This document shows, piece by piece, positions 28,586-61,943 of a stretch of 64,000 bases of DNA. Below the pieces are notes generated by a model. That model was not told the DNA's origin. It was given only the letters and a program-made list of their open reading frames with translations, and ran no database searches. The DNA comes from a virus, in the UHGV virus genome UHGV-1364187; one strand, 5' to 3'. The translations under genes and the position numbers were made by a program. Within the stretch, counting starts at the first letter, position 1. The number at the start of each line of letters is the position of its first letter.

Positions 28586-28591
28586 ACCCAC

Positions 28592-40442: not shown

Positions 40443-40454
40443 TATTTAAGTGTT
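40443..40454 (-). promoter_or_regulatory. Late-promoter-like motif AACActtaaaTA (minus strand), 31 nt upstream of the beta gene ATG
   Basis: Pattern AACA-N6-TA, read directly. Confidence 0.45.
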
Positions 40455-40510
40455 ACATAACTTAATAATAAAGGAAAATACATATATTTTTTACAAAGGA
40501 GGAGTTCAAT

Positions 40511-40867
40511 ATGAGACGAGAATGTAAACTCAGTTTGCACTTTAGTCAATTAGTTGATGGGGAGGTGGCTATAAGACATATAAGAAAGAATGTTCTATAT
40601 GATGAAATTATACGATCATTTGTATACTCTTGTAAATTAAATAATAATGATCCTAATTATATTAGCTTTATTAATAAAGAGTATCTATTGTTTATGATTA
40701 AGAAATATAACGGTTGTATTATAAGATATAAGAGAAAATCTATTCTTATGAATGAAAATTGTTATAATGAATTCATGCAATTACAAAATGATTTTAAGAA
40801 TAATCATAAATTATTAGAGCTTGCATGTTTTTATTATTTTAACATTATGCCACCCGAATTAAGATAA
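40511..40867 (+). CDS. Hypothetical protein (118 aa)
   Basis: AAAGGAGGAG RBS. Confidence 0.5.
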   Translation: MRRECKLSLHFSQLVDGEVAIRHIRKNVLYDEIIRSFVYSCKLNNNDPNYISFINKEYLLFMIKKYNGCIIRYKRKSILMNENCYNEFMQLQNDFKNNHKLLELACFYYFNIMPPELR

Positions 40868-40903
40868 ACATATATATAAACCAAAAAGAAAGGTGTGATA
40901 CTA

Positions 40904-41401
40904 ATGGCTTTTAATAATAATCTTATTACAAGCTCAAGACAAGTTGAAGTTGATATTTTCAGACTTGAACTTCTTATCGATTCAGAAACGAAACAAGTTA
41001 CATATAACCAAGATTTAATTCCTGGCAAAGTAACTCAAAGTGCTAGTGGAATTGTTAGTGTATATGATCCACATAGAGAATGTAATGTTCAGATTGTATG
41101 CAATAACAGAGATATTATTGAAAGAAAAGTTATTGACAATGGTGAGTATATTAAATATTCTATCAATTGTTCAAAAGCTAGAATTGCAGAATTCAAAGAA
41201 GCTTTAGTAAGATATGCAAGAGCTAAAGAGGCAGAATTGCTTACAGCTTATCAAAAAGCTGTAGAAACAAAAACCGAACTCATTGCACAAATTGATGCAT
41301 ATTTAGGTGCTAAAGATGAAGATAATACAACTCATTCTGGTGGAACTTCTACAGATCAAGAACAACTTCCAGAAGGTTCAGGCACAACTACAACATCTTA
41401 A
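40904..41401 (+). CDS. Hypothetical protein (~165 aa) with a Thr/Ser/Gly-rich C-terminus
   Basis: Start chosen at MAFNNN with an AAAGGTG RBS. Confidence 0.5.
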   Translation: MAFNNNLITSSRQVEVDIFRLELLIDSETKQVTYNQDLIPGKVTQSASGIVSVYDPHRECNVQIVCNNRDIIERKVIDNGEYIKYSINCSKARIAEFKEALVRYARAKEAELLTAYQKAVETKTELIAQIDAYLGAKDEDNTTHSGGTSTDQEQLPEGSGTTTTS

Positions 41402-41475
41402 TTATTAAGAATATAAAGTACTGATTACATTTGAGTAATCAGTACTTTATATTTTATTTAAGGAGGCTAAATTAT

Positions 41476-42219: not shown

Positions 42220-42233
42220 GGAGAGATGTAATT

Positions 42234-42899: not shown

Positions 42900-42916
42900 G
42901 AAGGATGTTTATTAAT

Positions 42917-43309: not shown

Positions 43310-43441
43310 TGCAATAAACATCTAAAATACATATAGAAATATACGTATACTCATTATATTTGATGAGTATACGTATATTTAATGTCTAATAAACACTATA
43401 ACATCATAGTAATTCTAGATATTTTAAGGAGGAATTTATTT

Positions 43442-44305
43442 ATGGAAGAATTTAAAAGTGTAATTAAAAGAAATGGTAAAATTGTAGATTACGATAGAAA
43501 TAAGATTAAAACTGTTGTTAGAAATAGTGGTCTTACAGATGAAGATAAATTAGAAGAATTTACATTGGAAGTTGAAAAACGACTACTAATAGAAAATGAA
43601 TCAGTTGATCATCAAGGTATATTTGATGTTGAACTAATTCAAGATATTATCATCCATCTGTTAGGACTATTAGGATATAAAAACGAACAAAATGAGTATA
43701 AGAGATATAAGAAAGAACGAGAAAAGATTAGACAGTCTAAATCTGATTTATTAAAAGTGGTTCATTCATTAGGTGTTGAAACTGATAGAGACAATGGGAA
43801 TGTTGGTAATAACTTCAGTGCCAAGTTATTACGTATTGCTAGCGAAACAAATAAATGTACGAATCTAGCATTAAATATTCCTAAGCATTTAGCGAAACCT
43901 CATGAAAATCATGATTACCATACTCATGATCTAGATAGTTATAATCTTACTACAAATTGTTTACATAATGACACTGGTGCTATATTAAAGAGAGGATTTA
44001 ATACTGGATATGGGTGGATTAAACCACCTAAAAGAATCGAATCAGCTGCCAACCTTACATGTATTATTATTCAATCACTTCAGAATGATTTTTATGGTGG
44101 GCAATCTTGTGTTGATATTGATAATGACCTTGGTGAATATGTAGAACCAACAAGACAAGAAATTATTGAAAGATTAGAACCTACAAGAAAATATGTACCA
44201 GAAGATGTATTCAATGATACAGTTGAAAGAATGTTAGATGAACAAATTCATCAAGCAGCACAGAATATTTGTTATAATCTTAATACTATGCATAGTAGAG
44301 CAGGT
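43442..44305 (+). CDS. nrdD: Anaerobic ribonucleoside-triphosphate reductase NrdD, exon 1 (ATP-cone and N-terminal region)
   Basis: AAGGAGG RBS. MEEFKSVIKRNGKIVDYDRNKIKTVV is an ATP-cone. HDLDSYNLTTNC...NLNTMHSRAG is colinear with class III RNR. The 3' exon boundary is approximate. Confidence 0.75.
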
Positions 44306-45463
44306 CAAGATGACTTAGCCGTGTTAGATAGAAATATCTAATATGATTATCGGGGAAATTCGGTAGAGGTCTAAGTAAGATTATCAATTAAAAAGAAATG
44401 ATGATATTTATGAATTATAATAAAACTGAAATTGAAAGATTATATTTTGAAGAAAATATGACATATGATCAAATATCTGAAATTGTAGGATGTTGTAAAT
44501 CTACTATAGGAAATATTATTAGATCAAATCCAAACTATAAAAAGAAATCACAAACACTATATAGTAATCCATTATTAGATGAAAATTATTTTGAAATAAT
44601 AGATACAGAAGCAAAAGCTTATATATTGGGACTTATGATAACAGACGGGAATGTTTGTTATTATGGTGATGGATATCGTATTAGATTACAATTAAAATAT
44701 GAAGATTCTTATATTTTAGAATTCTTTAAAAATCAGATTCACTGTTCCAATAAACTTATTGTTGATAAGCGAGATGGTTCTATTGCATTTAGTATAAAAT
44801 CAGAAAAGATGTTTTATGATTTATCTAAATATGGAGTAGTTCCTAATAAAACTTTAAATAATTATGTTCCACCAAATATACATCCAATGCTAATGCCTCA
44901 TTTAATAAGAGGAATATTTGATGGTGATGGTTGGATATCAAAATCGTTTGATAAAAATGGAAAGAAACATATAGCTATTGGTATTTGTGGAAATGAAAAT
45001 TTTCTTCAACAATTCAGGATATATTAGTAATAAATGCTCGAGTAAATATGAATATTATAAATTCTTATAGCTCAATTAATGAAGCTCCATTATACCAAAC
45101 AATGTGGTGTTCTATTGGAGATATTATTAGATTATATAGTTATTTATACATAGGTGCTAATATATATCTATTTAGAAAATATCATACTATAATTGATATA
45201 ATTTTATATGAAAATACCGAGAGGGCTTTAATCGAAAGTCTTTGTAACGCATAGGAGTTGAACGTTATGATAGTAAAAATACTCCCAAGAGTCTCCGACA
45301 CAATATACTATAGGTATATTTGAGGTGGAAATTGCTCACCACCAAACCTAACGTTAAACGAGGGTGAATATATATGCTAGGCTGGATTGGAAATGACCAA
45401 TCGATGAAAATGAGGGAAACCTCCAGAGGTCTAGATAAAAAGCTAGACGTTAATAACAGTCCG
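44306..45463 (+). mobile_element. Group I intron 1 in nrdD (~1158 nt) carrying a LAGLIDADG homing endonuclease ORF
   Basis: Separates ..MHSRAG from SQVPFSSLN, which are contiguous in NrdD homologs. The 3' portion has CCGAGAGGGCTTTAATCGAAAGTCT and GAGTCTCCGACAC core elements similar to intron 2, plus a terminal hairpin gtctag..ctagac and a final G. Confidence 0.65.
44398..45027 (+). CDS. LAGLIDADG homing endonuclease (two motifs) with an N-terminal helix-turn-helix, encoded inside nrdD intron 1
   Basis: AYILGLMITDGNV is motif 1 and HLIRGIFDGDGWIS is motif 2. Confidence 0.8.
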   Translation: MMIFMNYNKTEIERLYFEENMTYDQISEIVGCCKSTIGNIIRSNPNYKKKSQTLYSNPLLDENYFEIIDTEAKAYILGLMITDGNVCYYGDGYRIRLQLKYEDSYILEFFKNQIHCSNKLIVDKRDGSIAFSIKSEKMFYDLSKYGVVPNKTLNNYVPPNIHPMLMPHLIRGIFDGDGWISKSFDKNGKKHIAIGICGNENFLQQFRIY

Positions 45464-45766
45464 AGTCAAGTTCCATTTAGTAGTTTAAATATTGGACTTC
45501 CTAAAAATAAAAATGGTGCTAGAGTATGTATGGCATTATTAGAAGAATACGATAAAGGTATGGGAAAAGGAGAACAAATGATTTTTCCTAATATTATCTT
45601 TAGATGTAAAAAAGGTATTAACAAAAATCCTAATGATCCATATTATTATTTATATGATAAAGCTTGTGATGTAGCAAGTAGACATATGAATCCAACATTT
45701 ATGAATATTGATAGTAAAATTAATATGGAGTTATGGAAAAAAGGTATTACACCTGCAATCATGGGT
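45464..45766 (+). CDS. nrdD: NrdD, exon 2
   Basis: SQVPFSSLNIGLP...FPNIIF...PAIMG continues NrdD; the exon ends with ...ATG GGT immediately before the in-frame TAA. Confidence 0.65.
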
Positions 45767-46075
45767 TAACAGAAAATGTTACACGGTTTCTACAGCTCAT
45801 GTAAAACCTATCTAAACAGGGAAAGCTCATAAGAGTCAATCCTGTGCTAAATTCTAATATTATATAGAATATATAATTATTTATACATTGTATATAGTAC
45901 TAGATAAATGCCGAGAGACTATCGAAAGACTATTTTATATAGAATCAAGTAGAGTAGGATACAAGTGTATTCGAAAAGATAGGCTTAGATATTTATATTA
46001 TCTATGAAGATATAGTCCGACACCTATAGTGATATAGGAAAGATTATGGAAACGATAATCTTATAACAAGAAATG
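45767..46075 (+). mobile_element. Group I intron 2 in nrdD (ORF-less, ~309 nt)
   Basis: Contains an exact S element AAGATATAGTCC (gaAGATATAGTCCgacac), GCCGAGAGACTATCGAAAGACT (shared with intron 1 and the beta' intron) and an IGS-like ACCTAT complementary to the exon end ATGGGT. The intron ends in G, and the junction restores the conserved MG-CR motif (PAIMG|CRTYVG). Confidence 0.7.
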
Positions 46076-47035
46076 TGTAGAACATATGTAGGTACAAATA
46101 TCAATGGTCAAGAAGGACCATCTAGAAGAGGAAATAATGCACCTGTTACTATTAATTTACCTAGATTAGGTATTAAAGCTAAAGGTGATTTAAATAAATT
46201 CTGGAGTTTATTAGATGATATGCTTAATTTATGTAAAGAATCTTTATTACATAGACATAGTATATTATGTAAACTTAGAGTAAAAGATTTACCATTTGCT
46301 GCAGGAGAAGGTATTATGATGGGTTCAGAAAATCTTGGACCTGATGATACTATCGAACCAATTCTTAAGAACGGAACATATGGAATTGGATTTGTAGGTT
46401 TAGCTGAAACATTAGTAGCATTAATTGGTAAACATCATGGTGAATCTAAAGAAGCTGACGAATTAGGATATAAAATTGTAAGTCACATTAGAGAATATTG
46501 TGATAAAACTAAAGAAGAGACACATCTTAATTTCTCATGTTACTATTCACCTGCTGAAAGTACAGCTGGAACATTTGCAAATGCAGATAGAGAAAAATAT
46601 GGTATTATTAAAGGAGTTACTGACCATGATTTCTATACAAATTCTGTTCATATTCCAGTGTATTATAATATCTCTATTAAAGATAAGATTGATATTGAAT
46701 CTAAATATCATTATTTAGGAAATGGTGGTCATATCTTTTATGTGGAAGTTGATGGATATCCATCTAAAGAACAAATTAAGAAAATTGTAGATTATGCGTT
46801 TGATCAAAGTGATATTAGTTATATGGGAATTAATTTCCATATTAGATATTGTAAAAAATGTGGTAAACGTGTAACGAATAATGTTATGGTATGTGATTGT
46901 GGAAGTACAGCTTTCCAAGGTATTAGTCGTATTACTGGATATTTAGCCCTAGATGGAAGATGGGGTCAAGGAAAAGTTGCAGAAAGAAAAATGAGAGTAT
47001 CGCATACTACAGGTAAAAATGTATATACAGAATAA
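46076..47035 (+). CDS. nrdD: NrdD, exon 3 (C-terminal glycyl-radical domain and zinc ribbon)
   Basis: CRTYVG..INLPR; CKKCGK..CDCGS zinc ribbon; glycyl-radical motif SRITGYLAL. Confidence 0.75.
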   Translation, partial: CRTYVGTNINGQEGPSRRGNNAPVTINLPRLGIKAKGDLNKFWSLLDDMLNLCKESLLHRHSILCKLRVKDLPFAAGEGIMMGSENLGPDDTIEPILKNGTYGIGFVGLAETLVALIGKHHGESKEADELGYKIVSHIREYCDKTKEETHLNFSCYYSPAESTAGTFANADREKYGIIKGVTDHDFYTNSVHIPVYYNISIKDKIDIESKYHYLGNGGHIFYVEVDGYPSKEQIKKIVDYAFDQSDISYMGINFHIRYCKKCGKRVTNNVMVCDCGSTAFQGISRITGYLALDGRWGQGKVAERKMRVSHTTGKNVYTE

Positions 47036-47039
47036 CAAA

Positions 47040-47076
47040 TAAGAAAGAGATCATTAAGATCTCTTTCTTTAATTTT
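47040..47076 (+). terminator. Terminator hairpin (aagaaagagatc-attaa-gatctctttctt + T-run)
   Basis: 12-bp stem followed by TAATTTTTAT. Confidence 0.65.
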
Positions 47077-47095
47077 TATAAGGGGGTAAAATATA

Positions 47096-47386: not shown

Positions 47387-47449
47387 TCATATCTCTAAAC
47401 ATTTTTTCAATCATATATTATATATATGAATAAAAACTTATAAAGGAGA

Positions 47450-47791
47450 GTGTTTTATATGATTAAAGAGATTAAGATTGGTGGAATTAGAAGAACAAGA
47501 TGTGGGTATTATATCTTAAATATTAATGGTGATAATATTTGTTATATCTTTGATGATTCAGAACGTTATAATAAGATTATTATGTATAGAAATATTGAAG
47601 ATATTCCTTCATTATTATCTATTAAAAGTTCTGGAACTAATATTATTTCTATTAAAGGTATAGCTATAAATACAAAGAATAAAACAATTATAATACAAAC
47701 AAAAACTAAAACATATTGTATTAAACCAAAAGAACATAATAAATTAACATTTGAAGACATGTATGAAAGATTAGAAAGGATGTGTAAATAA
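47450..47791 (+). CDS. Standalone paralog of the NrdG N-terminal extension domain (113 aa)
   Basis: AAAGGAGAG RBS. MIKEI.., EDIPS, GIAINTK..II.QT and YE.L.R blocks are shared with residues 1-105 of the next gene. The stop overlaps the next start (TAATG). Confidence 0.5.
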   Translation: MFYMIKEIKIGGIRRTRCGYYILNINGDNICYIFDDSERYNKIIMYRNIEDIPSLLSIKSSGTNIISIKGIAINTKNKTIIIQTKTKTYCIKPKEHNKLTFEDMYERLERMCK

Positions 47792-48621
47792 TGATTAAAG
47801 AGATATCACAATTCACAATTAAACTTGTAGAAAAAGACACATATGGAGAGACATATAATGTTCTTAATAGAAAGGATATTACAATATGTACTCTATATAA
47901 ATCTAAATTAGGAACAGTTAGAGTATATTTATCAGAAGATAAATATGTTAGTGTATATGTATTTGATGAAGATATACCATCTATAGATAAACTCATTACT
48001 GGTATTGCGATCAATACAAAAAGAAATAATATTATACTTCAAACTAATGAAAGAATAATTTCATTTAGACAAACTGATAGTGTATACGAACAACTTATGA
48101 GATATGTTTCTAATTCATATAAATTACAAGTTGCAGGATTTTATGATAATAGTTCAGTTAATGGACCTGGATTAAGATCTGTTTTATTTGTATCTGGATG
48201 CAAGTTTAATTGCCCAGATTGTCAAAATAAAGAAGCTCAATCTATGACCTATGGAGATAAAGTGAGTGTAGGTGAAGTTGTAAAAAGAATTAAATCAAAT
48301 ATCCCAATTATAGATGGCGTTACATTAAGTGGTGGAGAACCAACGTTACAATCAGAAGCATTATTAGATTTAGTAAAAGATTGTAAGAAGTTAGGTTTAA
48401 ATGTTTGGATGTACACTGGAGATAAATATGAAAATCTTATGAAAGATCCAGTAAAATCTAAATTAGTTAAATCAGTTGATGTATTAGTAGATGGAAGATA
48501 TGTAAAAGAATTAAATGATCCTAATCTATTGTATAGGGGAAGTTCTAATCAAAGAATTATTGATGTATCTAAATCTACTGTAGATGATATTGTATTATGG
48601 GATGAAAGTGAGGACTTTTAA
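47791..48621 (+). CDS. nrdG: Anaerobic RNR activating protein NrdG (radical SAM) with a ~105-aa N-terminal extension
   Basis: GPGLRSVLFVSGCKFNCPDCQN is the CxxxCxxC radical-SAM/NrdG motif; SGGEPTLQ follows. Confidence 0.75.
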   Translation: MIKEISQFTIKLVEKDTYGETYNVLNRKDITICTLYKSKLGTVRVYLSEDKYVSVYVFDEDIPSIDKLITGIAINTKRNNIILQTNERIISFRQTDSVYEQLMRYVSNSYKLQVAGFYDNSSVNGPGLRSVLFVSGCKFNCPDCQNKEAQSMTYGDKVSVGEVVKRIKSNIPIIDGVTLSGGEPTLQSEALLDLVKDCKKLGLNVWMYTGDKYENLMKDPVKSKLVKSVDVLVDGRYVKELNDPNLLYRGSSNQRIIDVSKSTVDDIVLWDESEDF

Positions 48622-48701
48622 TGAGAACTTATACTATTCATTATTTGATTAAAAGTGAATATATTTTATAATTCTGAATTGTAATAGTTTATTACATGTA
48701 G

Positions 48702-48713
48702 AACATAAGTGTA
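48702..48713 (+). promoter_or_regulatory. Late-promoter-like motif AACAtaagtgTA inside the repeated element TAATAGTTTATTACA..
   Basis: 3 nt upstream of the AGGAGG of the 48729 gene; the ~30-bp element is repeated at 48880. Confidence 0.45.
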
Positions 48714-48728
48714 AAGGAGGAGTTATTT

Positions 48729-48869
48729 ATGAATACCAAAAATAACGATTCTAAGACAAAATTTATAGACGAGTTAATGAAAATGTCTAAAGATGATATA
48801 GAAGAATTAATATCATCTAAAGGTAAACCAAGAAAACTTATTAAACCAGCATTTATTGTTCGAAAATAG
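48729..48869 (+). CDS. Small protein, 46 aa (MNTKNNDSKTKFIDELMKMSKDDIEELISSKGKPRKLIKPAFIVRK)
   Basis: AAGGAGGAG RBS; shorter than the ORF-track cutoff. Confidence 0.45.
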   Translation: MNTKNNDSKTKFIDELMKMSKDDIEELISSKGKPRKLIKPAFIVRK

Positions 48870-48903
48870 GTTAAATTATGTAGTAATAGTTTATTACACA
48901 TAT

Positions 48904-48915
48904 AACTTAAATGTA
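48904..48915 (+). promoter_or_regulatory. Late-promoter-like motif AACTtaaatgTA (second copy of the repeated element)
   Basis: Read directly. Confidence 0.4.
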
Positions 48916-48948
48916 ATCAAATTATTGAAAATCAAGGAGGAATTAATT

Positions 48949-49455
48949 ATGTCAGAAGTATTAAAATTAACACAAGAAATTAAAGAAGGATTAACACAAA
49001 CAAGCTCAAGTGTAAAAGATGAACAACGTTTTATGAGAACTATGCTAAATGACCGAGAATTTGTTGTTGACCAATACAGTAAAGGTGAAGTTGTAGGACA
49101 AATTTGCCCAGCTCAAGAAGCAAGAGACATGTTAACAAGTGTTATCGCATCAGCTACAAAAATTCCACAAGCAGAAGCTGCACAATTAGCAGAAGCTCAT
49201 GAATTCAAAAATGCTGAAGCTACAAATATGATCAATGTATCAAAATCATTTATTAACTTATATCTTAATACAGGTCGTAAATTACCATTAGGTGGAACAA
49301 TGGATGTAGCACTTTCTCAAAAACATATTGAAGAAACACAACGTCCATATCCAAAACGTGTTGGTGTTGATGATCAAGGTAATTCAATTTACACAACAGG
49401 TCTTGCACCAGTTCCAGCACATGATACAATCAAAGTGCACAATCCAAAATTCTAA
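48949..49455 (+). CDS. Probably abundant (virion?) protein, 168 aa
   Basis: Start chosen at MSEVLKL (AAGGAGG RBS). Strong 'high-expression' codon bias (CGT for Arg, CAA, GAA, CCA, GCT); followed by a strong terminator. Confidence 0.6.
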   Translation: MSEVLKLTQEIKEGLTQTSSSVKDEQRFMRTMLNDREFVVDQYSKGEVVGQICPAQEARDMLTSVIASATKIPQAEAAQLAEAHEFKNAEATNMINVSKSFINLYLNTGRKLPLGGTMDVALSQKHIEETQRPYPKRVGVDDQGNSIYTTGLAPVPAHDTIKVHNPKF

Positions 49456-49458
49456 CAA

Positions 49459-49498
49459 ATAAGTAGGTACTTAAATGTACCTACTTATTTTATTTTTT
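49459..49498 (+). terminator. Rho-independent terminator (aagtaggtac-ttaaat-gtacctactt + TTTATTTTTT)
   Basis: Read directly. Confidence 0.7.
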
Positions 49499-49506
49499 GA
49501 GAGGAT

Positions 49507-49938
49507 GTGTTTATTATGATTAATGGAGTTGTTGAAATTAGAGATTATAGGATAGAACAATCAGAATTATTATATAAGACTCTAAAAGTCTATAATATAA
49601 TAGACAATGTATCTAATCGATCTATATTCTCAGTACATATTAATCATAATAGAGTTATTATGCATACTTTATTTTCTAAAGAGTCTATAACACTAGATAT
49701 TAATATAGACAATATTAACGATATAAGAAAACATATTAAACATATAAAACTAGAATATAAAGATGACAAATTCTTTGTATATATTAACGATATAAAAGTA
49801 AGTGTACTGAATGTAAGTCTGTATAGAAATATGTATAAAATGAATAGTAAAAGAGTAGGGTATTACCCTACTCTTTTACTATTTGTCCAAAACTCCACAT
49901 TTACTAGGAATAACACTATAGTAATCGAAAGGAGGTAA
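49507..49938 (+). CDS. Hypothetical protein (143 aa)
   Basis: GAGAGGATG RBS. Confidence 0.5.
   Translation: MFIMINGVVEIRDYRIEQSELLYKTLKVYNIIDNVSNRSIFSVHINHNRVIMHTLFSKESITLDINIDNINDIRKHIKHIKLEYKDDKFFVYINDIKVSVLNVSLYRNMYKMNSKRVGYYPTLLLFVQNSTFTRNNTIVIERR
49912..49923 (+). promoter_or_regulatory. Late-promoter-like motif AACActatagTA, 20 nt upstream of the giant gene ATG
   Basis: Read directly. Confidence 0.45.
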
Positions 49939-49943
49939 TCTAT

Positions 49944-52900
49944 ATGGCACAAAGAACAAGTTTAACAAAATATGCAAAGAATTTAGTAAAATCAACTAAA
50001 TATGCTACTGTTGATGTTGTAAAGGAATTAATGCCAAGTGCAACAGATTTTATGGAAACAAATAATGAATTATTTAAAGATATTACGTCTAATATACGTA
50101 ATAGACGTGTTATTTTTAAAAGAGTAAACGATAAAGTTACTCAATCAAAAATCTATGAAACTGTAGATGAAGCTAGAAAAAATATCATAGAAGATATAAA
50201 ATCTGGTAATTTATATAACAAAGATCCAATCAGAGAAAGACGTATTAATAAAAAATCTGGTATGGAGAGTATGTTAGGTGGATTTGATGATTTTAGTGAT
50301 TTTGAGTTTGAAATGGATGATTCATTCGAATTTGAAGATAGTGATAATGCCGAATTAGCTGATGCTTTTGATGATTCTAATAGAACAACATCAGAAATGA
50401 TCGCTAATACAATTGCAAAAACATCATCTAATCAGATCCAATCACAAAGAATATCAAGCCAGATGACAATGATGCAATTACAAGAAGGATTTACATTAGT
50501 AAATTCAAATCTTGGTGGAATAGGTAATGCTATTTCTGAATTAGGGAATACTATGTCATCTATTCAACAAACTAATGCTGAAAATGCAAAAACTTATTAC
50601 GAAAAATCTACTGACTTGCAAGCTAATATGGTATCATATCTTAAAGAGTTAGTAGATATGAAAAAATCTGAAATGGGATTAGATGCTAAGAAAGATACAT
50701 CTCGTGGACCTAAATCATATAATGACATAACTACATATGAAGGTATGCCTGATCTTAGAGCATATGGTAATATATTAGCTAGTAAATTAAATGATAATTT
50801 ATCAATGATTACAGGTCTTAATGAAATGGGTATCGAAGGTGGAAACATGTCAATGCAATTTGCTATGTCACCACTTGCATTTCTTCCTAAGATGGTTGTA
50901 AAGAAGGTTATGGGAGTAGCTGTTCAAAATTCAGCAAAAGCTTTAGATAATACATTATCAAATATATTTGGTACATTCATATCTGCTATGAATGATATGG
51001 CTGATAATTCTGGATATATGTCAATAAAAGGAATGATAGGACGATTCTTTGGTTTAAATGACACTGTAAAAGATGAACGTAGTATAAGAACAGACTATGA
51101 TAAAGGAAATAAATCATGGAATGGTAAAGCCGAAAAAGCATTAACTGAAGTAATTCCTACATTAATTTCTAAAATTTTAGCTGTAGTATCTGGAGCAAAT
51201 GAGATGACATATAACTACGATAATGGTAAATTTACTACAGTAAAACAATTAAGACAAGATGTAAAAAATAGAACTACTAATGAAATGAATAGTGCATTTT
51301 ATGATATAAGAAATAAAATGGACGAAATGATGAGATCTATTAATTTTGATTTTTCTGATGAAGACACTAAAGCATCATTTGAAAAAGATTATAATAGATT
51401 CTTTGAATATTTCTTTAAATCTAATAATAGATTTAATCCAAATAAGAAAAACTATGAAGATTATGATGGTCTTGGTATTGATAGAGGTAATTTTGAAATT
51501 ATATCTACATTGTTTGAAAGACTAGATCCATCATTAAAAATGTCTATGGATAGTAAAAAAATAAGAGCTAGAGGTGCTATTAATGATTATATTGATAAAT
51601 TAGGACAGAATAGTCCAGTATATACTATCCTTAATAATGATTCAAAATTAACAGATGTCGATAAATCTGTAGATGGAAAATCTGGAGGGTTATTAACAGC
51701 ATCTAAAGATTCATTAGGACATGACATATTCTGGTTTTTGGATAATATTCTTAAATCTATTAGAGATTTAAATCCAGATTCTGAATATAATGTAAATGGA
51801 AAGAAACGTAAAAAGAAAAGAACTAAAAATATAACTTCAACTCCTATTGTTCCATCTTCAGATAAAACATCTTCTGCTGGAAATAGGAAGAGATATGTTA
51901 GTCCAGATGCTCTTACTGCAGAATCTATATTATATAATAGAGCAGAGGGTACTACTATATCTGGTATTATTAATAATAGATTGGATATTGCTGACGAACA
52001 GAGAAAATTGGAGGAAGAAGAAAAAACATCTATTATTGATGATTTATTAGACTCACCATCTTTACCAGCGAAAGCTAAAGCTTTCATGAAAAGAATGAAA
52101 TCTACTAAAGAAGGTGCTAGAAATGGTATATCTGGACTTTTAGATACTGTAAATCTTAAGATATATCAAGCTATGTATGGTAATAAAAAATATAAAGGTA
52201 AGGATGTAAATGGTATTATAGGAGTAATGATGGAAAATATCGAAGAATCATTCACCAAGTTCAATACATTCTTAGATGAAAAGATCTTATCTCCATTGAA
52301 AGAAAAGTTAGATGAACAAGGTGGAATTAAAGGTATTCTTAAAAACACATTAGGAATAGATGTTGATTCTATTAAAGAAAGATTCTTTGGTAAAGATACT
52401 CTTTTTGGTAGAACTGTTCAATCTATTAAAGATAATTTTAAATCTGCTTATGAGTATTCTAAAGGAGCTGTAAAAAACACATACAATGAAATCTATGATA
52501 AATTAGGTGGAAATAGATACAATAGTAGATTCAATCGTGTAATGAACACTATTAAATATGGTAAGAAAAATACACAAGGTATGTTTATTGTAGATTCAGA
52601 TGGACAACTTAATATACTTAATCAAGTAAAAAAAGTTAAACCTTCAAATGTTACAGAAGATGGAAGATTAAACACTCAAGAAGAAGCTTCATCTGTTATG
52701 GAAGGACAAATGAGTTTCTTACCAAAAGACGAACAACAAGCTATAAAAGAAGCTGCAAATAATATGAATGTTCCAGTAGAAAATATTGCAGATGCAATCA
52801 ATAAAGGTAATATCGAAAAATATGCTAAAGGTGGAAATATTCATAAAACTAAAATTGTTATGGTTCATGATGGAGAAGAAATCATTACCAAAGAAGAAAA

Positions 52901-55900
52901 ACGTAAGAGAGATAGAGAAAGAGCTTATGATCTAAGAGTTAAAAATAACATAAATAAACTAAATACTGAAATGAGCGAAGATTTTGTTGGGCCTTTACCT
53001 TTAAAAGATCAAAAAATAAAAGATTTCTTATCTGGAATTAATGAAGAAAACCTTGGAACTATTAAAGATTCTTTAGGAAAAGATTTTAAAGCTACTACTG
53101 TAGAAACTTTAAGACAGGAAATTATAGAAGCTGTTGGTCATAAAAAAGGTGATCCTACATTAATGGAAACCATGAAAGACACTGCATCTGATGGAATAAA
53201 TAAAGTAATGTCAGTGTTATTTGGTACAGATGAAAATGGTGATGAAAAAGCTGATGATCTTAAAGAACGTGGAAAAGCTGCAATGAAAGATATTATGGGT
53301 AAATTTAAAGAATATCTCCCATCTGGAATATCTGGTGCATTAATTGGTACTCTAGCTGGTGGTGTTGTTGGTATGCCTATGATTGGTGCAGCATTGGGTT
53401 CATCTATTAATCTTATTAGAAAATCAGATAAACTTCAATCATATTTATTTGGAGATTTAGATGAAGAAGGTAAGAGAATAGGTAATGGTAAACTTCCAAC
53501 CAAATTTGTAGATGCTATGAATAAATATGGTCCAGATATGAAAAAGTACGGTATTACAGGTGCAATTACATCTATTTTACCTTTTGTTCCTGGTGGTCCT
53601 GTTGCTGGATTATTATTAGGAGCAGGTGTTGGGTTTGCTAAAAATAACGCTAAAGTACAAGACTTCTTATTTGGAGATATGGGCATATTAAAAGGTCTTA
53701 AAGGTAGTGGTGAGAAATTAAAGAAAGCTTTACCTAAAATGGGTCTAGGTGCGGCTGCTTTAGCATTAACTGGTCCATTCGGTTTACTTGGTAATGCTAT
53801 GCTTGGTGCTGGTGCAGGATTTGTTACTCAAACAAATAAATTCCAAGAATTTATGTTTGGTAAAGATGGTAAAGATAAAGATGGTAACCCTATTAAAGTT
53901 GGTGGATTTTTACCAATGATTAGGGATAGAGTAATCAACCCTATTAAAGAATTTGGTTCTACATTAGGTGATAAAGTTAAAACTTTTGTAGATGAAGAAA
54001 TAAGAAAACCATTTCATAAAGCAATGAGTCCATTTATAGAAGAATTTAAATACCAAGGTAAGAGATTGTTTGATGGTATAAAAGATTCTATCAGTGGAGC
54101 TATTAATAATGTATTTGAAAAGTCAGTTGGTAAACCATTAAATGAACTTATCGAAGATAAGATTGTAAAACCAATTACAGGATTATTTAAGAAAGTATTT
54201 AACTTTTTAGGAGGTATTGTTGGTGGTATTCTTAAATTCCCTACTAAAATCATGTCAGGAGCTGCAGACTCTTTAAGAATTAAACATTTAAAACAAGGTC
54301 GTGCTGATTATATGTCTGATGAAGAATTAGGTGAATTAAAAGAAAAGAAACCATTTGATTATTTAATGGCTACATCAGGACAACGTTTCATAAATGCACT
54401 TAATGAACGTGGTTTATTTGGTTCTATGAAAGATTTATTTACTAGAGATAAAGATGAAGTTGTTACTGACGAGGAATCTGTTAAAGAAAAGAAACCTACA
54501 TTCAGAGAAAAAGTATCAGGAATAGTAGCTAAAGGTTTAGATTCTTATAATGCTAAAAGATTAGCTATTACAGAAAGAGTATCATCTGGGTATGCTAATA
54601 CTAAAGAAGAATTAAGAAATGCTAAACAAAATCTTAAAACAAAAGCTTATCAAGCTGCAATGAATGCAACAGATAAATTATCAGCTAGTATTGAAGCTGG
54701 TAATAGGTATTCTAAAGTTTCTTCTTATAGGGAATCAGAAACAGAAAGCGAGGGAGACTCGACTGGTTCTTCAGAGAAGCGTGTTGATCTTAGAACTAGA
54801 ACACCTAAAATTAAATCTGTAAAAACACAAAATGTAAGTTTAGTAAATCCAGAAGTTGATGCTTTGAAACAACAAGTAAAACAATTAACCACCGAGCTTG
54901 CAGTAATGCAAAAAGAAAAAGAAGAAAATAAAGATACATCTTCAGACAAATCATCAGAATATATCAAAGATATAAGAGATGAGGTTAGAGGGCAATTAGA
55001 TGGAGTTGGATACAATATCCATACGATTGCTAATATACTAGTAGAACAATTCGGTATGCCTAAGATTAAAGCTACAGGTGCTAAAGTATCTCGTGGAAAT
55101 CTTAAACGAAAATTATGGTTTGAGAGAATGTTTGGATTTATTCTTAATCCTGTTAGAAAAGTTAAAGATAGTATTCATAATCTATTCTGGGGTAAAGATG
55201 GTAATGGTGGTTTATTAGGCACTCCAATGAGATGGGTTAAGAAAGGATTTGAAAAAATAGGTAATATTGGAACATTAATTGGAAAAGGATTAGCTGGTAT
55301 ACTAAATATTGGTTCAGGTATTGTTCATGGACTTGGTATATTAGGTGGTATCTTTAAAGAAAGTTTAGCTGCAATAGCTCCAGCTATTGGAAGTTTATTA
55401 AAAGGTGCAGTTAAAGTATTAACGTTACCTATCGATTTATTATCAGGTGCAATATCAGGTCTTGGTAATATGCTTGGTGGATTAGCTAATGGTATTGGTA
55501 TTCTTGCTGGAAAAACTATTGAACTTGTTTCTTTAGTTCCATCATTAATTACTAATATTGGTAAACTGACTATTGAAGTTGGTAAATTTGCATTCAAATT
55601 AGTTAAGAAAGGTGCAGAACTTATAACAGCTCCAATAAGATGGATGGCTAATGGTATTATTGATATATTTAGAGGAAAAAATAAGAAAAATAAAAAGAAA
55701 GAAATCAAGCATATTATAGAAGGTGGTTTCTTAGATAAAATCAAAGAACCTATCGATATTAGTGGTGAACAAGATAGACATGATAAATTATTATCTTTCT
55801 TTGATGATAAATTTAATAAATTATTTGATTTATTAAGTGGAACTGATAATAAAAAGAAATCTATTACAAATAATATTACTAATAAAGAAGAAATAGAAGA

Positions 55901-58900
55901 AGATAAACCAAAATTATCTACTGAAGAATTACAAAAGATGTCATTTAGTGATTATATTAGATCTGGTCAAAGTATGTCTCTTGATGATTTAGAAAGATAT
56001 GCAGACGCAAGAAAGAATCTAATGACTACTGTTAAAAAACCAGAACAACCTGCTAATAATGGAGATGTATTGAAAAAATCTTTATATGATATTATCAATG
56101 ATAATAGAGCAGGAATGAAACCATCATATGATAAACCACTAAATGTTCAAACTGAAGAACAAATTAATATGCCTACTGAATTTGGTGTTATTAGATATGA
56201 TAAAGATACTTCTGGTGAATTAAGACCAGTACAAGACTCAGTGTATACTCAGTATAAAGAAAATCAAGATAATCTTGCTGAACACAATTCAAAAATGTTC
56301 AATCTTCTTAATACTGGAGATGCAGAGGATGACGGTAAATCTACTAAGAAAGAATCTTGGATTTCTAAGATTGCTAAAAATATTGGTAGTGTATTAATGG
56401 GTGGTACTCTTCTTAAAGTTGTTGGTGCAGGTTTAATGGCTGGTGCTGTATATGATCTAGCTAAGAATGGAGAAAATTCATTTGTTGGTAAATTTGTTTC
56501 TTTCTTTAGTGATAAAGTTTTACCAAAAATAGTAGATTTTACAATAAATACAGCAATTCCAGTATTAACAGATGCATTACTTTCTCTGTCAGAAATGATA
56601 TTAGATAGAGTTACAAATCCACAAAAATATTCAAATCCAGATCATGAATTATCAAAAGCTAATGCGAAAGCTAAACTCAGTGATGGATCTTATATTACTG
56701 ATGATGGAGTTTATGATAAAAATGGTAATTGGATAATGCAATCATATACACCTACCACAACTGGTTCATTAATAGAAAAAGGTTGGAATAAAATAGCTGG
56801 AAATAAAATAGAATCATGGGCAAAAGATACATTCGGTGAGAATTCAATAGGAGCTAGATTATTTTCAACAAATGTATTATCAACAACTATAGATGATAAA
56901 GAGATAGAAAATGTTTCTCATAAAAATTCAGAAACAACAAAAACTAATAAAAACAAAGAAGAAACAATGTCAGATAGTGAGTTCTTTTCTAAAGCTATAT
57001 TTGGCAAAGGTAAAAAGAAATATGGTCTAGGTGAATCATTCTTCTCACAAAATGATCCTAGATGGAGTAATTTACCATTTAATACTGAAAATGATACAGA
57101 AGCTCAAACTATTGCAGATTCTGGTTGTGGTCCAACAGCCGCAGCTATGGTAGCTGATCAATACGGAAGAGCTAATCCAGTAGAAGCTTCAGCTTTCGCT
57201 TTAAATAATGGATATAAAGAACAAAATGGTGGTACTGATCCTAGATTCTTTAAAGATTATTTCAATAAAAAAGGTATTGATAGTGATATTGATACAGATA
57301 TTGATACTAATTCTGATAAGAAATTATCTATTATTAATAATCTTAGAAAGAATAAACCTGTTGTATTAATGGGTAAATCTAAAGGTGGTAATACACCATA
57401 TGGTAAAGAATATCCACATTATGTTGTAGCTACTGGAATGAGAGGCGACAAGATTCAAATTAATGATCCCAACTCTAATCATGGTGGAGAATTATACGAT
57501 GCTAATGATACACTTAGATCTTCAACTATAAGCGTAAAAACTGGCAGAGGTAAGAAATCTAAATATGGTAGAGTAAATATGCAAGCTATGCTTGACACAA
57601 CAATGAATGTTGCTGGAGCTGTATCAGGTGCAGTTATGCCTACATCTAGTACATCATCAGTAGCTAGAACGGTAACAAATAACTTCAGTAGTGCTAGTGG
57701 ATTTGCAACATCATCAGATGGATCTTTAACAGAAGGTAAAAGTGCACTTAATTTCGTAACAGATTTAGGTACCACATTTACTAAAGCTATCGGTGAATTC
57801 TTTGGTGTTGATATGTTTTCTAGTAATACTGCTAGTAGAGATGTTGGTTCCTATGGTTCTATGGGAGGTTCTGTACAAGTAGGTACGGCAGGTCAATGTT
57901 TTGATGCTAACGTTGCAGCTCAAGTTATCAATGATTTCTTTAAAAATAGTCCTAAACTTAGTGGAAAAGGTGCTACTATTGTATCTATTGCTCAACAAGC
58001 TTGTCATAAAAGTGCTAATGGACAAAATCCTGGTATTGATCCATTCATTCTTGCAGCTATTATGATGCAAGAAACAGGAGGAAATTCTAATGCATTAAAT
58101 AACAAGAATAACCCTGGTGGTGTTAAGGGAAGTAATGGATTACAAGTATTTAGTACAATTGAAGATGGTATTATGGCTGTTGCTAAGATTATCCATAGAG
58201 AATGGGTAGTTAATGGTAATAGCAGTATTGCTGGATTAGGTAGTATTTATTGCCCAGTAGATGCTGCAGATGATCCTAATGGATTAAATAAAAACTGGGT
58301 TGGAGGAGTAACCAAATTCTATAACCAGTTAGTACAAGCAGCTATAGCTGCAGGAGGTTTATTAGGTACTTCTGATAATATGGCTATTAGTAATATGGGA
58401 ACAGCTAATAATGTTGCAATACAAATTGTACGAATAGCTAAATCATATATAGGCAAAGTTAAATATGTATTTGGTGCAGAAACTCCAGATAAAGGTGTAT
58501 CTGACTGTTCTGGATTTACTCAAGCTGTATATAGAAAAGTAGGTCTTGCTATTGGTAGAAATACTGAAGCACAAATTACTAATAAAAATATTGTAAAAGT
58601 TAGTGATTCATACAACTTTAAAGCTCAACCTGGTGATTTAATATTCTTCAAAAACACTTACAATTCTGGATATATTTATGGTGTATCTCATGTTGGTATT
58701 TGTACTGGAGAAGGAACAAAATTTATTGAATGTAATAGTAGTAAGGGTGTTTGTGTAAGTGATTATACTAGTAACTATTGTAAGAAATATTTCTTAATGA
58801 TTAAACGTCATACTGCATGTGTCGACAAGAATGCTATGTATAAGACATCTCAAGCACAACAAACTGCTAAAAAAGCAAATACTACAACTGCAACAACTAC

Positions 58901-60011
58901 TACTAAATCAAATGATCCACTTAAAAATGCTAATAACGCTATTAATTCAAAAAATGCAACTTACAATGCATATAATACCCTTTCAGGAAAAGGTAAATCA
59001 AAAGATATTAGATATAACTCTGATATTAAGAAACCATCTAAGAGAATTAATAGAACTGTGTCTAGTAATAATGATTATTTAGAAGAAATAAATTATGGTA
59101 AAGGAATTGGAAAAGTAAACTTAGAAAAACTTAAGAAATTACCAAAAGTTCAAAAATTAATTTCAGAAGAGTTATCTAAAGCTGTTAAGAACAAGTCAAA
59201 AACTCCAGTATCTACAGCTGCAGCAAAAGTATATGCTAAGCTTAAAGCTTCTAAATTTACTGATGTAACAGATTCTGAAGGAAATTACATTGATTTCGTT
59301 GAACTTGAAAGAAACAATAATGCTACTCCTATTGTTGATGGTAAATTAAACTTAAGAGAATTTGATGCTGATGGGAAATTAATCGATTGGGATGCTGTAA
59401 ATGAGAAGAATGGTGTTGTTACAAAACAGGATGATACTCCAGTTATTGGAGAAGCTAATCCTATCTCTACAGTATTAAATACAATCTATAATAAACTTAC
59501 AGGGAATAATCAAGATACTGCTAAGAAAGAAGATCTTGATTCTGAAGGTAATAAAATAGATTGGAATGAAGTTGAGAAGAATAACAACATCGAGGTTAAG
59601 ATTCCTACTAATGCTTCTCAATTAACAGATCAACAATTGAAGAAGAAAGAAGCTGAGAATAATACTACTCAAACTAATACGACATCTACAAACAATAATA
59701 CAAAAGAACAACAGCAAATTGAGGCTCAACAAAAAGCTGTAGAAGCTAAACAAACTCAAGTTGATAATCAATTGACTGCATTAACTAATATAGCTAAATC
59801 TGTAGAGAGTATTTATAACTTAATATTATTATTAGTAAATAATGGTATAGATATTAAGAACTTAGCTGAAATTCTTAAAGCTATTGGTGTATCATCATGT
59901 GATGGAGGAAGCAATAATGCGTTCTTTATTCCACAAAATAATACACAATCATCAGATGCCCATAATGCCGATATGGAACTTCTAAGTAAACTTAAAGAAA
60001 TAGCTAAATAA
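49944..60011 (+). CDS. Giant virion-associated, tape-measure-like protein (3355 aa) with three C-terminal peptidoglycan-hydrolase-type domains
   Basis: AAAGGAGG RBS. Three Gly-rich hydrophobic repeats each ending ..Q(D/E)F(L/M)FG; a glycine-zipper segment (GLAGILNIGSGIVHGLGILGG). C39-like peptidase signature ADSGCGPTAAAMV (~aa 2393). Lytic transglycosylase motif ILAAIMMQETGG (~aa 2700). NlpC/P60 motif VKYVFGAE..DCSGFTQAVY..HVGICTG (~aa 2850). C-terminal coiled coil. Confidence 0.75.
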   Translation: MAQRTSLTKYAKNLVKSTKYATVDVVKELMPSATDFMETNNELFKDITSNIRNRRVIFKRVNDKVTQSKIYETVDEARKNIIEDIKSGNLYNKDPIRERRINKKSGMESMLGGFDDFSDFEFEMDDSFEFEDSDNAELADAFDDSNRTTSEMIANTIAKTSSNQIQSQRISSQMTMMQLQEGFTLVNSNLGGIGNAISELGNTMSSIQQTNAENAKTYYEKSTDLQANMVSYLKELVDMKKSEMGLDAKKDTSRGPKSYNDITTYEGMPDLRAYGNILASKLNDNLSMITGLNEMGIEGGNMSMQFAMSPLAFLPKMVVKKVMGVAVQNSAKALDNTLSNIFGTFISAMNDMADNSGYMSIKGMIGRFFGLNDTVKDERSIRTDYDKGNKSWNGKAEKALTEVIPTLISKILAVVSGANEMTYNYDNGKFTTVKQLRQDVKNRTTNEMNSAFYDIRNKMDEMMRSINFDFSDEDTKASFEKDYNRFFEYFFKSNNRFNPNKKNYEDYDGLGIDRGNFEIISTLFERLDPSLKMSMDSKKIRARGAINDYIDKLGQNSPVYTILNNDSKLTDVDKSVDGKSGGLLTASKDSLGHDIFWFLDNILKSIRDLNPDSEYNVNGKKRKKKRTKNITSTPIVPSSDKTSSAGNRKRYVSPDALTAESILYNRAEGTTISGIINNRLDIADEQRKLEEEEKTSIIDDLLDSPSLPAKAKAFMKRMKSTKEGARNGISGLLDTVNLKIYQAMYGNKKYKGKDVNGIIGVMMENIEESFTKFNTFLDEKILSPLKEKLDEQGGIKGILKNTLGIDVDSIKERFFGKDTLFGRTVQSIKDNFKSAYEYSKGAVKNTYNEIYDKLGGNRYNSRFNRVMNTIKYGKKNTQGMFIVDSDGQLNILNQVKKVKPSNVTEDGRLNTQEEASSVMEGQMSFLPKDEQQAIKEAANNMNVPVENIADAINKGNIEKYAKGGNIHKTKIVMVHDGEEIITKEEKRKRDRERAYDLRVKNNINKLNTEMSEDFVGPLPLKDQKIKDFLSGINEENLGTIKDSLGKDFKATTVETLRQEIIEAVGHKKGDPTLMETMKDTASDGINKVMSVLFGTDENGDEKADDLKERGKAAMKDIMGKFKEYLPSGISGALIGTLAGGVVGMPMIGAALGSSINLIRKSDKLQSYLFGDLDEEGKRIGNGKLPTKFVDAMNKYGPDMKKYGITGAITSILPFVPGGPVAGLLLGAGVGFAKNNAKVQDFLFGDMGILKGLKGSGEKLKKALPKMGLGAAALALTGPFGLLGNAMLGAGAGFVTQTNKFQEFMFGKDGKDKDGNPIKVGGFLPMIRDRVINPIKEFGSTLGDKVKTFVDEEIRKPFHKAMSPFIEEFKYQGKRLFDGIKDSISGAINNVFEKSVGKPLNELIEDKIVKPITGLFKKVFNFLGGIVGGILKFPTKIMSGAADSLRIKHLKQGRADYMSDEELGELKEKKPFDYLMATSGQRFINALNERGLFGSMKDLFTRDKDEVVTDEESVKEKKPTFREKVSGIVAKGLDSYNAKRLAITERVSSGYANTKEELRNAKQNLKTKAYQAAMNATDKLSASIEAGNRYSKVSSYRESETESEGDSTGSSEKRVDLRTRTPKIKSVKTQNVSLVNPEVDALKQQVKQLTTELAVMQKEKEENKDTSSDKSSEYIKDIRDEVRGQLDGVGYNIHTIANILVEQFGMPKIKATGAKVSRGNLKRKLWFERMFGFILNPVRKVKDSIHNLFWGKDGNGGLLGTPMRWVKKGFEKIGNIGTLIGKGLAGILNIGSGIVHGLGILGGIFKESLAAIAPAIGSLLKGAVKVLTLPIDLLSGAISGLGNMLGGLANGIGILAGKTIELVSLVPSLITNIGKLTIEVGKFAFKLVKKGAELITAPIRWMANGIIDIFRGKNKKNKKKEIKHIIEGGFLDKIKEPIDISGEQDRHDKLLSFFDDKFNKLFDLLSGTDNKKKSITNNITNKEEIEEDKPKLSTEELQKMSFSDYIRSGQSMSLDDLERYADARKNLMTTVKKPEQPANNGDVLKKSLYDIINDNRAGMKPSYDKPLNVQTEEQINMPTEFGVIRYDKDTSGELRPVQDSVYTQYKENQDNLAEHNSKMFNLLNTGDAEDDGKSTKKESWISKIAKNIGSVLMGGTLLKVVGAGLMAGAVYDLAKNGENSFVGKFVSFFSDKVLPKIVDFTINTAIPVLTDALLSLSEMILDRVTNPQKYSNPDHELSKANAKAKLSDGSYITDDGVYDKNGNWIMQSYTPTTTGSLIEKGWNKIAGNKIESWAKDTFGENSIGARLFSTNVLSTTIDDKEIENVSHKNSETTKTNKNKEETMSDSEFFSKAIFGKGKKKYGLGESFFSQNDPRWSNLPFNTENDTEAQTIADSGCGPTAAAMVADQYGRANPVEASAFALNNGYKEQNGGTDPRFFKDYFNKKGIDSDIDTDIDTNSDKKLSIINNLRKNKPVVLMGKSKGGNTPYGKEYPHYVVATGMRGDKIQINDPNSNHGGELYDANDTLRSSTISVKTGRGKKSKYGRVNMQAMLDTTMNVAGAVSGAVMPTSSTSSVARTVTNNFSSASGFATSSDGSLTEGKSALNFVTDLGTTFTKAIGEFFGVDMFSSNTASRDVGSYGSMGGSVQVGTAGQCFDANVAAQVINDFFKNSPKLSGKGATIVSIAQQACHKSANGQNPGIDPFILAAIMMQETGGNSNALNNKNNPGGVKGSNGLQVFSTIEDGIMAVAKIIHREWVVNGNSSIAGLGSIYCPVDAADDPNGLNKNWVGGVTKFYNQLVQAAIAAGGLLGTSDNMAISNMGTANNVAIQIVRIAKSYIGKVKYVFGAETPDKGVSDCSGFTQAVYRKVGLAIGRNTEAQITNKNIVKVSDSYNFKAQPGDLIFFKNTYNSGYIYGVSHVGICTGEGTKFIECNSSKGVCVSDYTSNYCKKYFLMIKRHTACVDKNAMYKTSQAQQTAKKANTTTATTTTKSNDPLKNANNAINSKNATYNAYNTLSGKGKSKDIRYNSDIKKPSKRINRTVSSNNDYLEEINYGKGIGKVNLEKLKKLPKVQKLISEELSKAVKNKSKTPVSTAAAKVYAKLKASKFTDVTDSEGNYIDFVELERNNNATPIVDGKLNLREFDADGKLIDWDAVNEKNGVVTKQDDTPVIGEANPISTVLNTIYNKLTGNNQDTAKKEDLDSEGNKIDWNEVEKNNNIEVKIPTNASQLTDQQLKKKEAENNTTQTNTTSTNNNTKEQQQIEAQQKAVEAKQTQVDNQLTALTNIAKSVESIYNLILLLVNNGIDIKNLAEILKAIGVSSCDGGSNNAFFIPQNNTQSSDAHNADMELLSKLKEIAK

Positions 60012-60017
60012 AAAAAT

Positions 60018-60056
60018 AATAATGTTGTGGAATAACCCAATTCCACAACATTATTA
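60018..60056 (+). terminator. Hairpin terminator (aatgttgtggaat-aaccca-attccacaacatt)
   Basis: 13-bp perfect stem immediately after the giant gene. Confidence 0.6.
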
Positions 60057-60058
60057 TA
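60047..60058 (+). promoter_or_regulatory. Late-promoter-like motif AACAttattaTA overlapping the terminator stem
   Basis: Pattern match only. Confidence 0.3.
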
Positions 60059-60083
60059 ATTAATATGAAAGTAGGTGATATAA

Positions 60084-61903: not shown

Positions 61904-61943
61904 ATAATGAATATACCGATAACAATAGAATAATGTATCTCGA

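Follow-up and report, generated by a model that had tools for sequence, protein, structure and literature searches.

What reads the short motif AACA-N6-TA that recurs ahead of an RNA polymerase (RNAP) beta gene and several virion-type genes in the gut jumbo phage genome UHGV-1364187? The question arises from a 64,000-nucleotide stretch of this genome, here called the window, which corresponds to positions 166,605-230,604 of a 256,505-bp metagenome contig (ENA ERZ27229639 k119_250412). An original prediction took the pattern AAC(A/T)-N6-TA, found upstream of genes between positions 40443 and 60058 and elsewhere, for a candidate late promoter of a phage-encoded RNAP and compared it with that of Bacillus phage AR9. 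Our analysis indicates that AACA-N6-TAA is very probably the late promoter of the window phage, with the phage's multisubunit non-virion RNAP as its presumed reader. The signal belongs to the promoter class already known from AR9, with TAA as a small variant of the consensus.

Enrichment upstream of genes

Across the entire window, AACA-N6-TA occurs 104 times compared with 97.4 ± 9.9 times in shuffled sequences, which is the level expected by chance. This result had been named beforehand as speaking against a promoter, and location and orientation were therefore tested explicitly. Genes were called by a crude rule combining open reading frames (ORFs) with ribosome-binding sites (RBSs), and the calls equal the source's own wherever both are comparable. 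The test set comprised ~7 kb of intergenic segments, each oriented toward the gene start downstream, and the expectation came from a first-order Markov model with 1000 simulations. Within this gene-directed DNA the motif occurs 18 times versus 4.7 ± 2.2 expected, and none of the 1000 simulations yielded 18 or more copies. The window-wide count stays at chance, but the enrichment toward genes is real. It is specific to the 6-nt spacer, as the other spacers are at background (N4 = 5, N5 = 2, N7 = 2, N8 = 6). An A follows TA in 17 of the 18 sites, and AACA-N6-TAA is found 17 times versus 1.6 expected. The enrichment over the Markov expectation is ~4-fold for the TA form and ~11-fold for the TAA form.

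An unbiased scan of all dyads made of a 4-mer, a gap of 0-12 and a 3-mer (~213,000 tests) placed AACA-N6-TAA third (P = 1.5e-12), preceded by two Shine-Dalgarno dyads only. Counting both strands, 24 of its 36 copies lie outside genes, in a window of which 10.4% is intergenic. It is rarer than expected within genes, in the sense (9 vs 19.6) as well as the antisense direction (3 vs 9.9). The ban on in-frame TAA stop codons accounts for part of this depletion, and the antisense deficit points to selection against spurious late promoters. When 17 kb of flanking contig were included, three further gene-directed sites came up, one of them preceding a gene for a tail protein of 1137 amino acids (aa).

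The window sites have the logo AACA-t-N4-R-T-A-A-t. Numbered from a predicted start at the A of TA, position +2 is A at 94% of sites and -3 is A at 56%, -2 is either A or G, and the A at -10 is invariant. From the predicted starts to the start codons the distance is 12-66 nt, in most cases 16-36 nt. Several sites directly follow intrinsic terminators, and terminator-like hairpins are themselves enriched in the window (18 vs 2.4 and 13 vs 3.8). The pattern originally proposed, AAC(A/T)-N6-TA, holds for its AACA form and tightens locally to AACA-N6-TAA, the AACT copy being a weak variant.

Agreement with mapped AR9 promoters

Protein comparisons place the source genome in the neighborhood of AR9, at a considerable distance. 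Local tblastn searches against the AR9 genome found matches for twelve window genes, arranged in syntenic blocks. These include the N-terminus of non-virion RNAP beta', a virion RNAP beta' fragment, two virion structural proteins, the tape-measure protein and RusA. A 1445-aa RNAP beta-like protein is closest to those of Listeria phage LPJP1, Bacillus phages AR9, PBS1 and BpSp, the Staphylococcus jumbo phages and Yersinia phage phiR1-37, at ~27-34% identity. Within AR9, it matches the virion RNAP beta subunit best (~28-33% identity). At the DNA level, phage records contain no match to the window except for one 97-nt segment. The suggestion of an AR9/PBS1-like genome is thus borne out by the virion RNAP beta orthologue and the synteny blocks, but the kinship is only distant.

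In AR9, late transcription starts were mapped by differential RNA sequencing (dRNA-seq) and primer extension. Of 118 non-early start sites, 94 carry AACA-(6N)-TA/G, in which the last base is the transcription start (Lavysh 2017, PMC5312081). The consensus was cited later as AACA(N6)TW (bioRxiv 10.1101/2020.12.14.422802), the form that the original prediction had correctly given. AR9 early promoters read AAATATATATTAT-(6N)-G, and continuously expressed genes have both promoter types (PMC5312081). The late element is read on the template strand by the purified five-subunit non-virion RNAP that includes gp226 (Sokolova 2017, PMC5449584; Fraser 2022, PMC9209446). The sigma-like gp226 recognizes template 3'-UUGU-5' (-11 to -8), in which -11 and -10 have to be deoxyuridine (PMC5449584; PMC9209446).

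The identical pipeline was run on AR9 as a positive control. It found 75 copies toward genes and 8 away, with 14 copies for N5 and 13 for N7. The density of 2.3 motifs per kb of intergenic DNA compares with 2.6 per kb in the window. We then used the AR9 supplementary tables to look up every AR9 orthologue of a window gene with the motif or its TACA variant. All eight (g189, g204, g208, g242, g259, g260, g261 and g264) have a mapped late AACA-N6-TA/G start and late expression. By analogy, the motif-bearing genes of the window phage are probably late, as had been proposed.

Among the genes with an upstream copy of the motif are those for virion RNAP beta, the tape-measure protein, virion structural proteins and RusA. 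At 40443-40454(-), AACActtaaaTA(A), with the base at +2 in brackets here and below, would start transcription 33 nt 5' of the virion RNAP beta gene (36073-40410(-)). Its orthologue g189 has a mapped late start at AACAaatagaTA and an expression profile of 0/24/390. This site had been noted as the promoter of an RNAP beta gene, which is correct, but the subunit belongs to the virion enzyme and is a late product, not the reader of the promoter. The 278-aa virion structural protein encoded at 15687-16523(-) is preceded by AACAtctataTA(A) at 16555-16566(-), with a predicted start 32 nt 5' of the gene; the late start of g259 was mapped at AACAtttattTG. AACAtaatagTA(A) at 19098-19109(+) lies 31 nt 5' of gene 19140-19802(+), whose orthologue g261 is expressed late from an AACA-N6-TA start. 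Gene 27504-28277(-) has AACAtatacgTA(A) at 28295-28306(-), 18 nt 5' of it, and corresponds to g242 (late start at AACAatataaTA, expression 0/55/752).

The 3355-aa tape-measure-like protein is encoded at 49944-60011(+), and AACActatagTA(A) at 49912-49923(+) is located 21 nt 5' of this gene; the late start of its orthologue g204 is at AACAatattaTA. This motif overlaps the 3' end of the preceding ORF 49516-49938, which may be spurious or shorter than called. A perfect hairpin with a 19-bp stem (49843-49883) also lies inside this ORF, just 5' of the motif. AACAatagaaTA(A) at 61921-61932(+) is predicted to start transcription 12 nt 5' of the RusA-like gene 61944-62735(+), and the orthologue g208 starts at AACAgattaaTA. 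Two further genes carry variants. TACAtataagTAA, at approximately 19054-19066(-), lies 5' of the gene for the 818-aa virion structural protein (16574-19030(-)), and TACAtctaatTAA lies 5' of the virion RNAP beta' fragment gene (13129-14364(-)). Their orthologues, g260 and g264, both have mapped late start sites.

Conservation among relatives and in other phages

The comparison set consisted of twelve IMG/VR loci that encode relatives of the 278-aa virion protein (35-54% identity). Upstream of the gene for this protein, AACA and TAA are kept in L008, L009 and L010, and the spacers differ (tctata, tatata, tataat, tagaat). The motif upstream of the orthologue of gene 19140-19802(+) is kept in L008, L009, L012 and L015. 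All eight genomes compared carry [T/C]ACA-N6-TAA 5' of the gene for the 818-aa virion protein. L018 keeps AACAcctataTAA before virion RNAP beta, at the same position as in the window.

The signal is also found in cultured phages. In a 50-kb sample of phiR1-37 (35-85 kb), AACA-N6-TA points toward genes 18 times and away from them twice, and AACA-N6-TAG is the top dyad overall (16 vs 0.8 expected). The corresponding numbers in a 50-kb sample of LPJP1 (55-105 kb) are 13 and 2. The favored base at +2 differs between phages: the window phage has A, AR9 and LPJP1 have T, and phiR1-37 has G. DNA of phiR1-37 supports partial activity of the AR9 non-virion RNAP (PMC5449584). An RNA-seq study of phiR1-37 reported no late motif (PMC4848604), none was recovered by MEME in the Staphylococcus jumbo phages, and a review considers the late promoters of these phages not predictable bioinformatically.

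RNAP genes and AR9-type early promoter motifs

The window encodes subunits of both the split non-virion RNAP and the virion RNAP; the other subunits lie outside it. The gene for the N-terminal subunit of non-virion RNAP beta' is located at 8882-10147(-). A second motif, ATTATATATTAT-N6-G, is near-identical to the AR9 early promoter, which is read by virion RNAP. It occurs 11 times in the window (8 exact copies and 3 with one mismatch), and all copies are intergenic and gene-directed. Eight are on the minus strand (5531-5549, 10165-10183, 11661-11679, 14950-14968, 15566-15584, 24878-24896, 26926-26944 and 28686-28704) and three on the plus strand (31057-31075, 34431-34449 and 47410-47428). They include sites before the genes for non-virion RNAP beta' (10165-10183) and RNase H. 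The AR9 orthologues of these two genes, g270 and g241, have mapped early promoters.

These features suggest a transcriptional cascade. Virion RNAP injected with the DNA would fire the early promoters ATTATATATTAT-N6-G, which would drive the non-virion RNAP beta' gene, among others. Non-virion RNAP would then act at AACA-N6-TAA before the genes for virion proteins, the tape-measure protein, the virion RNAP subunits, RusA and NrdD, and transcription would start at the A of TA. With an early motif driving the non-virion beta' gene, the regulatory loop would be closed.

Weighing the alternatives

Several observations weigh against reading AACA-N6-TAA as a late promoter of the AR9 type. Its lateness in the window phage is deduced from homology. 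The motif is not present at the 278-aa gene in the more distant L012, L015, L018 and L019. Single-mismatch variants are not enriched as classes, and several late-type genes carry only TACA or AACT. The consensus was therefore kept narrow, despite the TACA and CACA copies conserved at one orthologous site. Position -11 of the promoter of the g260 orthologue varies between T, C and A, whereas AR9 strictly requires that base (PMC5449584). The matches at 5562 and 8110 fall within terminator hairpins and are doubtful. Furthermore, a profile hidden Markov model (HMM) of gp226, run on all ORFs in 81 kb of the 256.5-kb contig, found only a weak local match of 18.6 bits. Pattern scans of the IMG/VR relatives' contigs found no member of the gp226 family with its T-x-YSD-x-V-I-W helix.

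The HMM match concerns ORF 25721-26236(-). We judged it spurious because the ORF is 151-171 aa long and the match is limited to a 62-residue stretch. A tblastn search with AR9 gp226 found no match in the window. The gp226 family is well populated in metagenomes, where clustering at 50% identity leaves 738 representatives.

The lack of a gp226 helix in the pattern scans of relatives and the variable -11 would fit a promoter that is used by non-virion RNAP but recognized differently than in AR9, on thymine DNA or the non-template strand, through a diverged specificity subunit. The origin of the contig, which was assembled from ordinary metagenome libraries of several samples, points the same way. 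Set against this, the cultured phages known or found here to carry the motif (AR9, phiR1-37 and LPJP1) all have DNA known or presumed to contain uracil. The A at -10 is invariant here, and its template partner is the critical U in AR9. We regard such a divergent mode of recognition as unlikely, if worth serious consideration. None of the AR9 matches of window genes is Ugi or a gene of the deoxyuridine monophosphate (dUMP) pathway. Uracil DNA is plausible in the window phage, because it is known or presumed in the relevant cultured relatives (AR9, phiR1-37, the Staphylococcus jumbo phages and LPJP1).

A host RNAP could also be the reader, directed by a host or phage sigma factor to TAAT as a -10-like element, as with gp55 of T4 or gp33/34 of SPO1. 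Some copies do resemble TATAAT (taTAAt at 16555), and AR9 has a small gene annotated as a sigma factor. However, a -10 hexamer would open with T at position -3, where 56% of sites have A, and -2 is occupied by A or G. The logo has no -35-like conservation, and sigma-70-type sites (TTGACA, 16-18 nt, TATAAT) are not enriched in the window (173 vs 195 and 135 vs 142 expected). The identical AR9 motif is transcribed in vitro by purified non-virion RNAP in a rifampicin-resistant manner (PMC5449584), and both phage enzymes have subunits encoded in the window. A host enzyme is thus a very improbable reader.

We give no more credence to the motif acting in RNA, as a processing site or an element of the 5' untranslated region, instead of marking initiation. 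This would agree with the weak enrichment of many such AR9 5' ends by terminator exonuclease treatment (PMC5312081). It conflicts with the copy at 13079 and those of the units at 15.2-15.5 kb described below, which come directly after intrinsic terminators, where the upstream transcript would already have ended, and with in vitro transcription in AR9, which begins at such sites (PMC5449584). The antisense depletion within genes likewise fits a DNA signal. Finally, a compositional accident, by which a motif of only six specified bases would simply be common in a genome of 27% GC as its chance-level total might imply, is extremely improbable. The controls on spacing, orientation and orthologues already refute it, among them the dyad rank just after Shine-Dalgarno and the conservation at orthologous sites with changing spacers.

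Other motif sites in the window

Further motif sites also precede genes. AACAttattaTA(A) at 60047-60058(+) has a predicted start 25 nt 5' of the virion structural gene 60083-61903(+). AACAtatataTA(A) at 40867-40878(+) lies 26 nt 5' of gene 40904-41401(+), and AACAagtaatTA(A) at 6340-6351(-) lies 66 nt 5' of gene 5591-6274(-). An HNH endonuclease gene (11865-13052(-)) has AACAaaaaaaTA(A) at 13079-13090(-), 27 nt 5' of it and just past a terminator hairpin. AACActataaTA(A) at 31020-31031(-), 32 nt 5' of gene 30365-30988(-), is divergent from the early promoter at 31057. AACAaaatctTA(A) at 34415-34426(+) is immediately 5' of the early promoter at 34431-34449, so that gene 34480-34776(+) carries both signals, as continuously expressed genes do in AR9.

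Two small neighboring genes have motif copies within a 34-nt repeat (48681-48714 and 48883-48916, both (+)) that is 85% identical between its copies, confirming the larger repeated element described in the original prediction. The first copy includes AACAtaagtgTA(A) at 48702-48713(+), 16 nt 5' of gene 48729-48869(+). The second includes the AACT variant AACTtaaatgTA(A) at 48904-48915(+), 5' of gene 48949-49455(+). This second site derives its standing solely from the duplication of the 48702 region, because AACT-N6-TAA is not enriched as a class (4 vs 1.7 expected). The repeat opens with the palindrome GTAATA-GTT-TATTAC, at about -29 to -15 from the predicted start. The palindrome could be an operator or upstream element common to two adjacent small late genes. 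Together with those before virion RNAP beta, the 278-aa gene, the tape-measure gene and gene 60083-61903(+), these two complete the six sites that had been listed. All six are present where they had been placed; a count of at least seven genes had been given, but only six were listed.

AACAtcatagTA(A) at 43400-43411(+) is situated 31 nt 5' of nrdD exon 1 (43442-44341(+)). The nrdD gene (43442-47035(+)) has three exons and two introns, with a LAGLIDADG ORF (44398-45027) within the first intron, and is followed by nrdG (47791-48621). The last ~97 nt before exon 2 (45362-45458) are 88-90% identical to sequences in AR9, PBS1, BpSp and phiR1-37. In AR9 the counterpart is found inside an intron-bearing topoisomerase II gene. 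This common sequence suggests a shared core of a mobile group I intron; the region has no Rfam match at the gathering threshold. The presence of nrdD and nrdG and the gut origin of the contigs indicate that the host is probably anaerobic, and short stretches identical to window sequence are found in gut metagenome assemblies.

Four minus-strand copies of the motif (15504-15515, 15398-15409, 15280-15291 and 15167-15178) have no ORF or RBS downstream. They belong to three or four tandem mini-units of ~90-110 nt (15167-15515(-)), in which AACA-N6-TA(A/G) is followed by ~50 nt of unstructured sequence, then a hairpin and a U-run. The hairpin and U-run are strong ~50 nt after the first three of the four copies (fold z-scores -3.9 to -5.3). 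The units are candidate late small RNAs. They are not conserved in relatives, as L008-L010 have a shorter gap without them.

The window is AT-rich (26-31% GC). A 707-nt region without ORFs (32962-33668) is very AT-rich and contains many short ATAGATAT-type inverted repeats. It carries four minus-strand AACA-N6-TA motifs, two of which would start transcription directly into an exact, GC-rich 29-nt repeat, GGCTTTTAAAGGCGTTGACTAGGAACCCT (33181-33209 and 33532-33560, (-)). IMG/VR contains no copy of this repeat, and neither a significant fold nor an Rfam match was found for it. Rfam searches found no match in the whole window at the gathering threshold and none at 32.9-33.7 kb at the E-value threshold, and there are no tRNAs in the window.

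Within 28325-28536(+), the motif AACAtatagaTAA is followed by an RBS (aaagggag) and by a 60-aa ORF with its ATG at 28354. The ORF runs antisense to the called gene 28374-28688(-). That gene is without an RBS, and the start codon assigned to it overlaps a site where transcription from an early promoter is predicted to begin, so the call itself may be wrong.

Significance

For an uncultured gut jumbo phage of 256 kb, the analysis yields a map of promoters sorted into early and late classes. A further outcome is that the AR9 late promoter proves detectable from sequence alone, contrary to reviews and genome papers, provided that the search is restricted to oriented intergenic DNA and the spacing is controlled. 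Applied to phiR1-37 and LPJP1, for both of which a late motif was previously unreported, this test brings out the signal as well. Its recurrence suggests that non-virion RNAP has kept its specificity in phages of Bacillus, Yersinia and gut anaerobes alike. Should the motif depend on uracil for its recognition, as it does in AR9, its sequence alone might identify uracil-DNA phages in metagenomes.

Tentatively, these elements may be combined. AACA-N6-TA would then be a conserved signature of the whole AR9/phiR1-37/LPJP1 lineage including the gut clade, with +2 as a tunable specificity position. Uracil DNA and template-strand recognition would be predicted throughout, and the units at 15.2-15.5 kb and the repeats at 33.2 and 33.5 kb would give rise to short late non-coding RNAs. 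We consider this combination possible, somewhat less probable than an even chance.

Comparison with known systems

The bacterial sigma-70 -10 element and the T4 gp55 late promoter TATAAATA are, like the window motif, short AT-rich elements ~10 bp before the start and without a -35. They differ in sequence, and their reader is a sigma factor on host RNAP that contacts the non-template strand; sigma-70-type sites show no excess in the window. Phage phiKZ, with its non-virion RNAP and gp68, is closer in enzyme family and in the logic of timing, with virion RNAP acting early and non-virion RNAP late. Its late signal, however, is only T(-3)ATG(+1), its positions -11 to -8 are unconserved and its DNA contains thymine.

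phiR1-37 and LPJP1 share with the window phage the gene-directed enrichment of AACA-N6-TA and have known or presumed uracil DNA, whereas they favor G and T, respectively, at +2 in place of A. AR9 differs in the same position, where A accounts for 94% here compared with T 48%, A 31% and G 17% there. It further differs at -2 (A/G here, A/T in AR9) and in its RNAP proteins, which are only ~30% identical. AACA, the 6-nt spacer and TA are nevertheless common to both phages, as the comparison originally proposed had anticipated. The mapped 5' leaders of orthologous AR9 genes are mostly 24-61 nt long, compared with the 12-66 nt predicted here, and the motif densities are similar. In both phages the motif is borne by orthologous genes and coexists with a near-identical early promoter.

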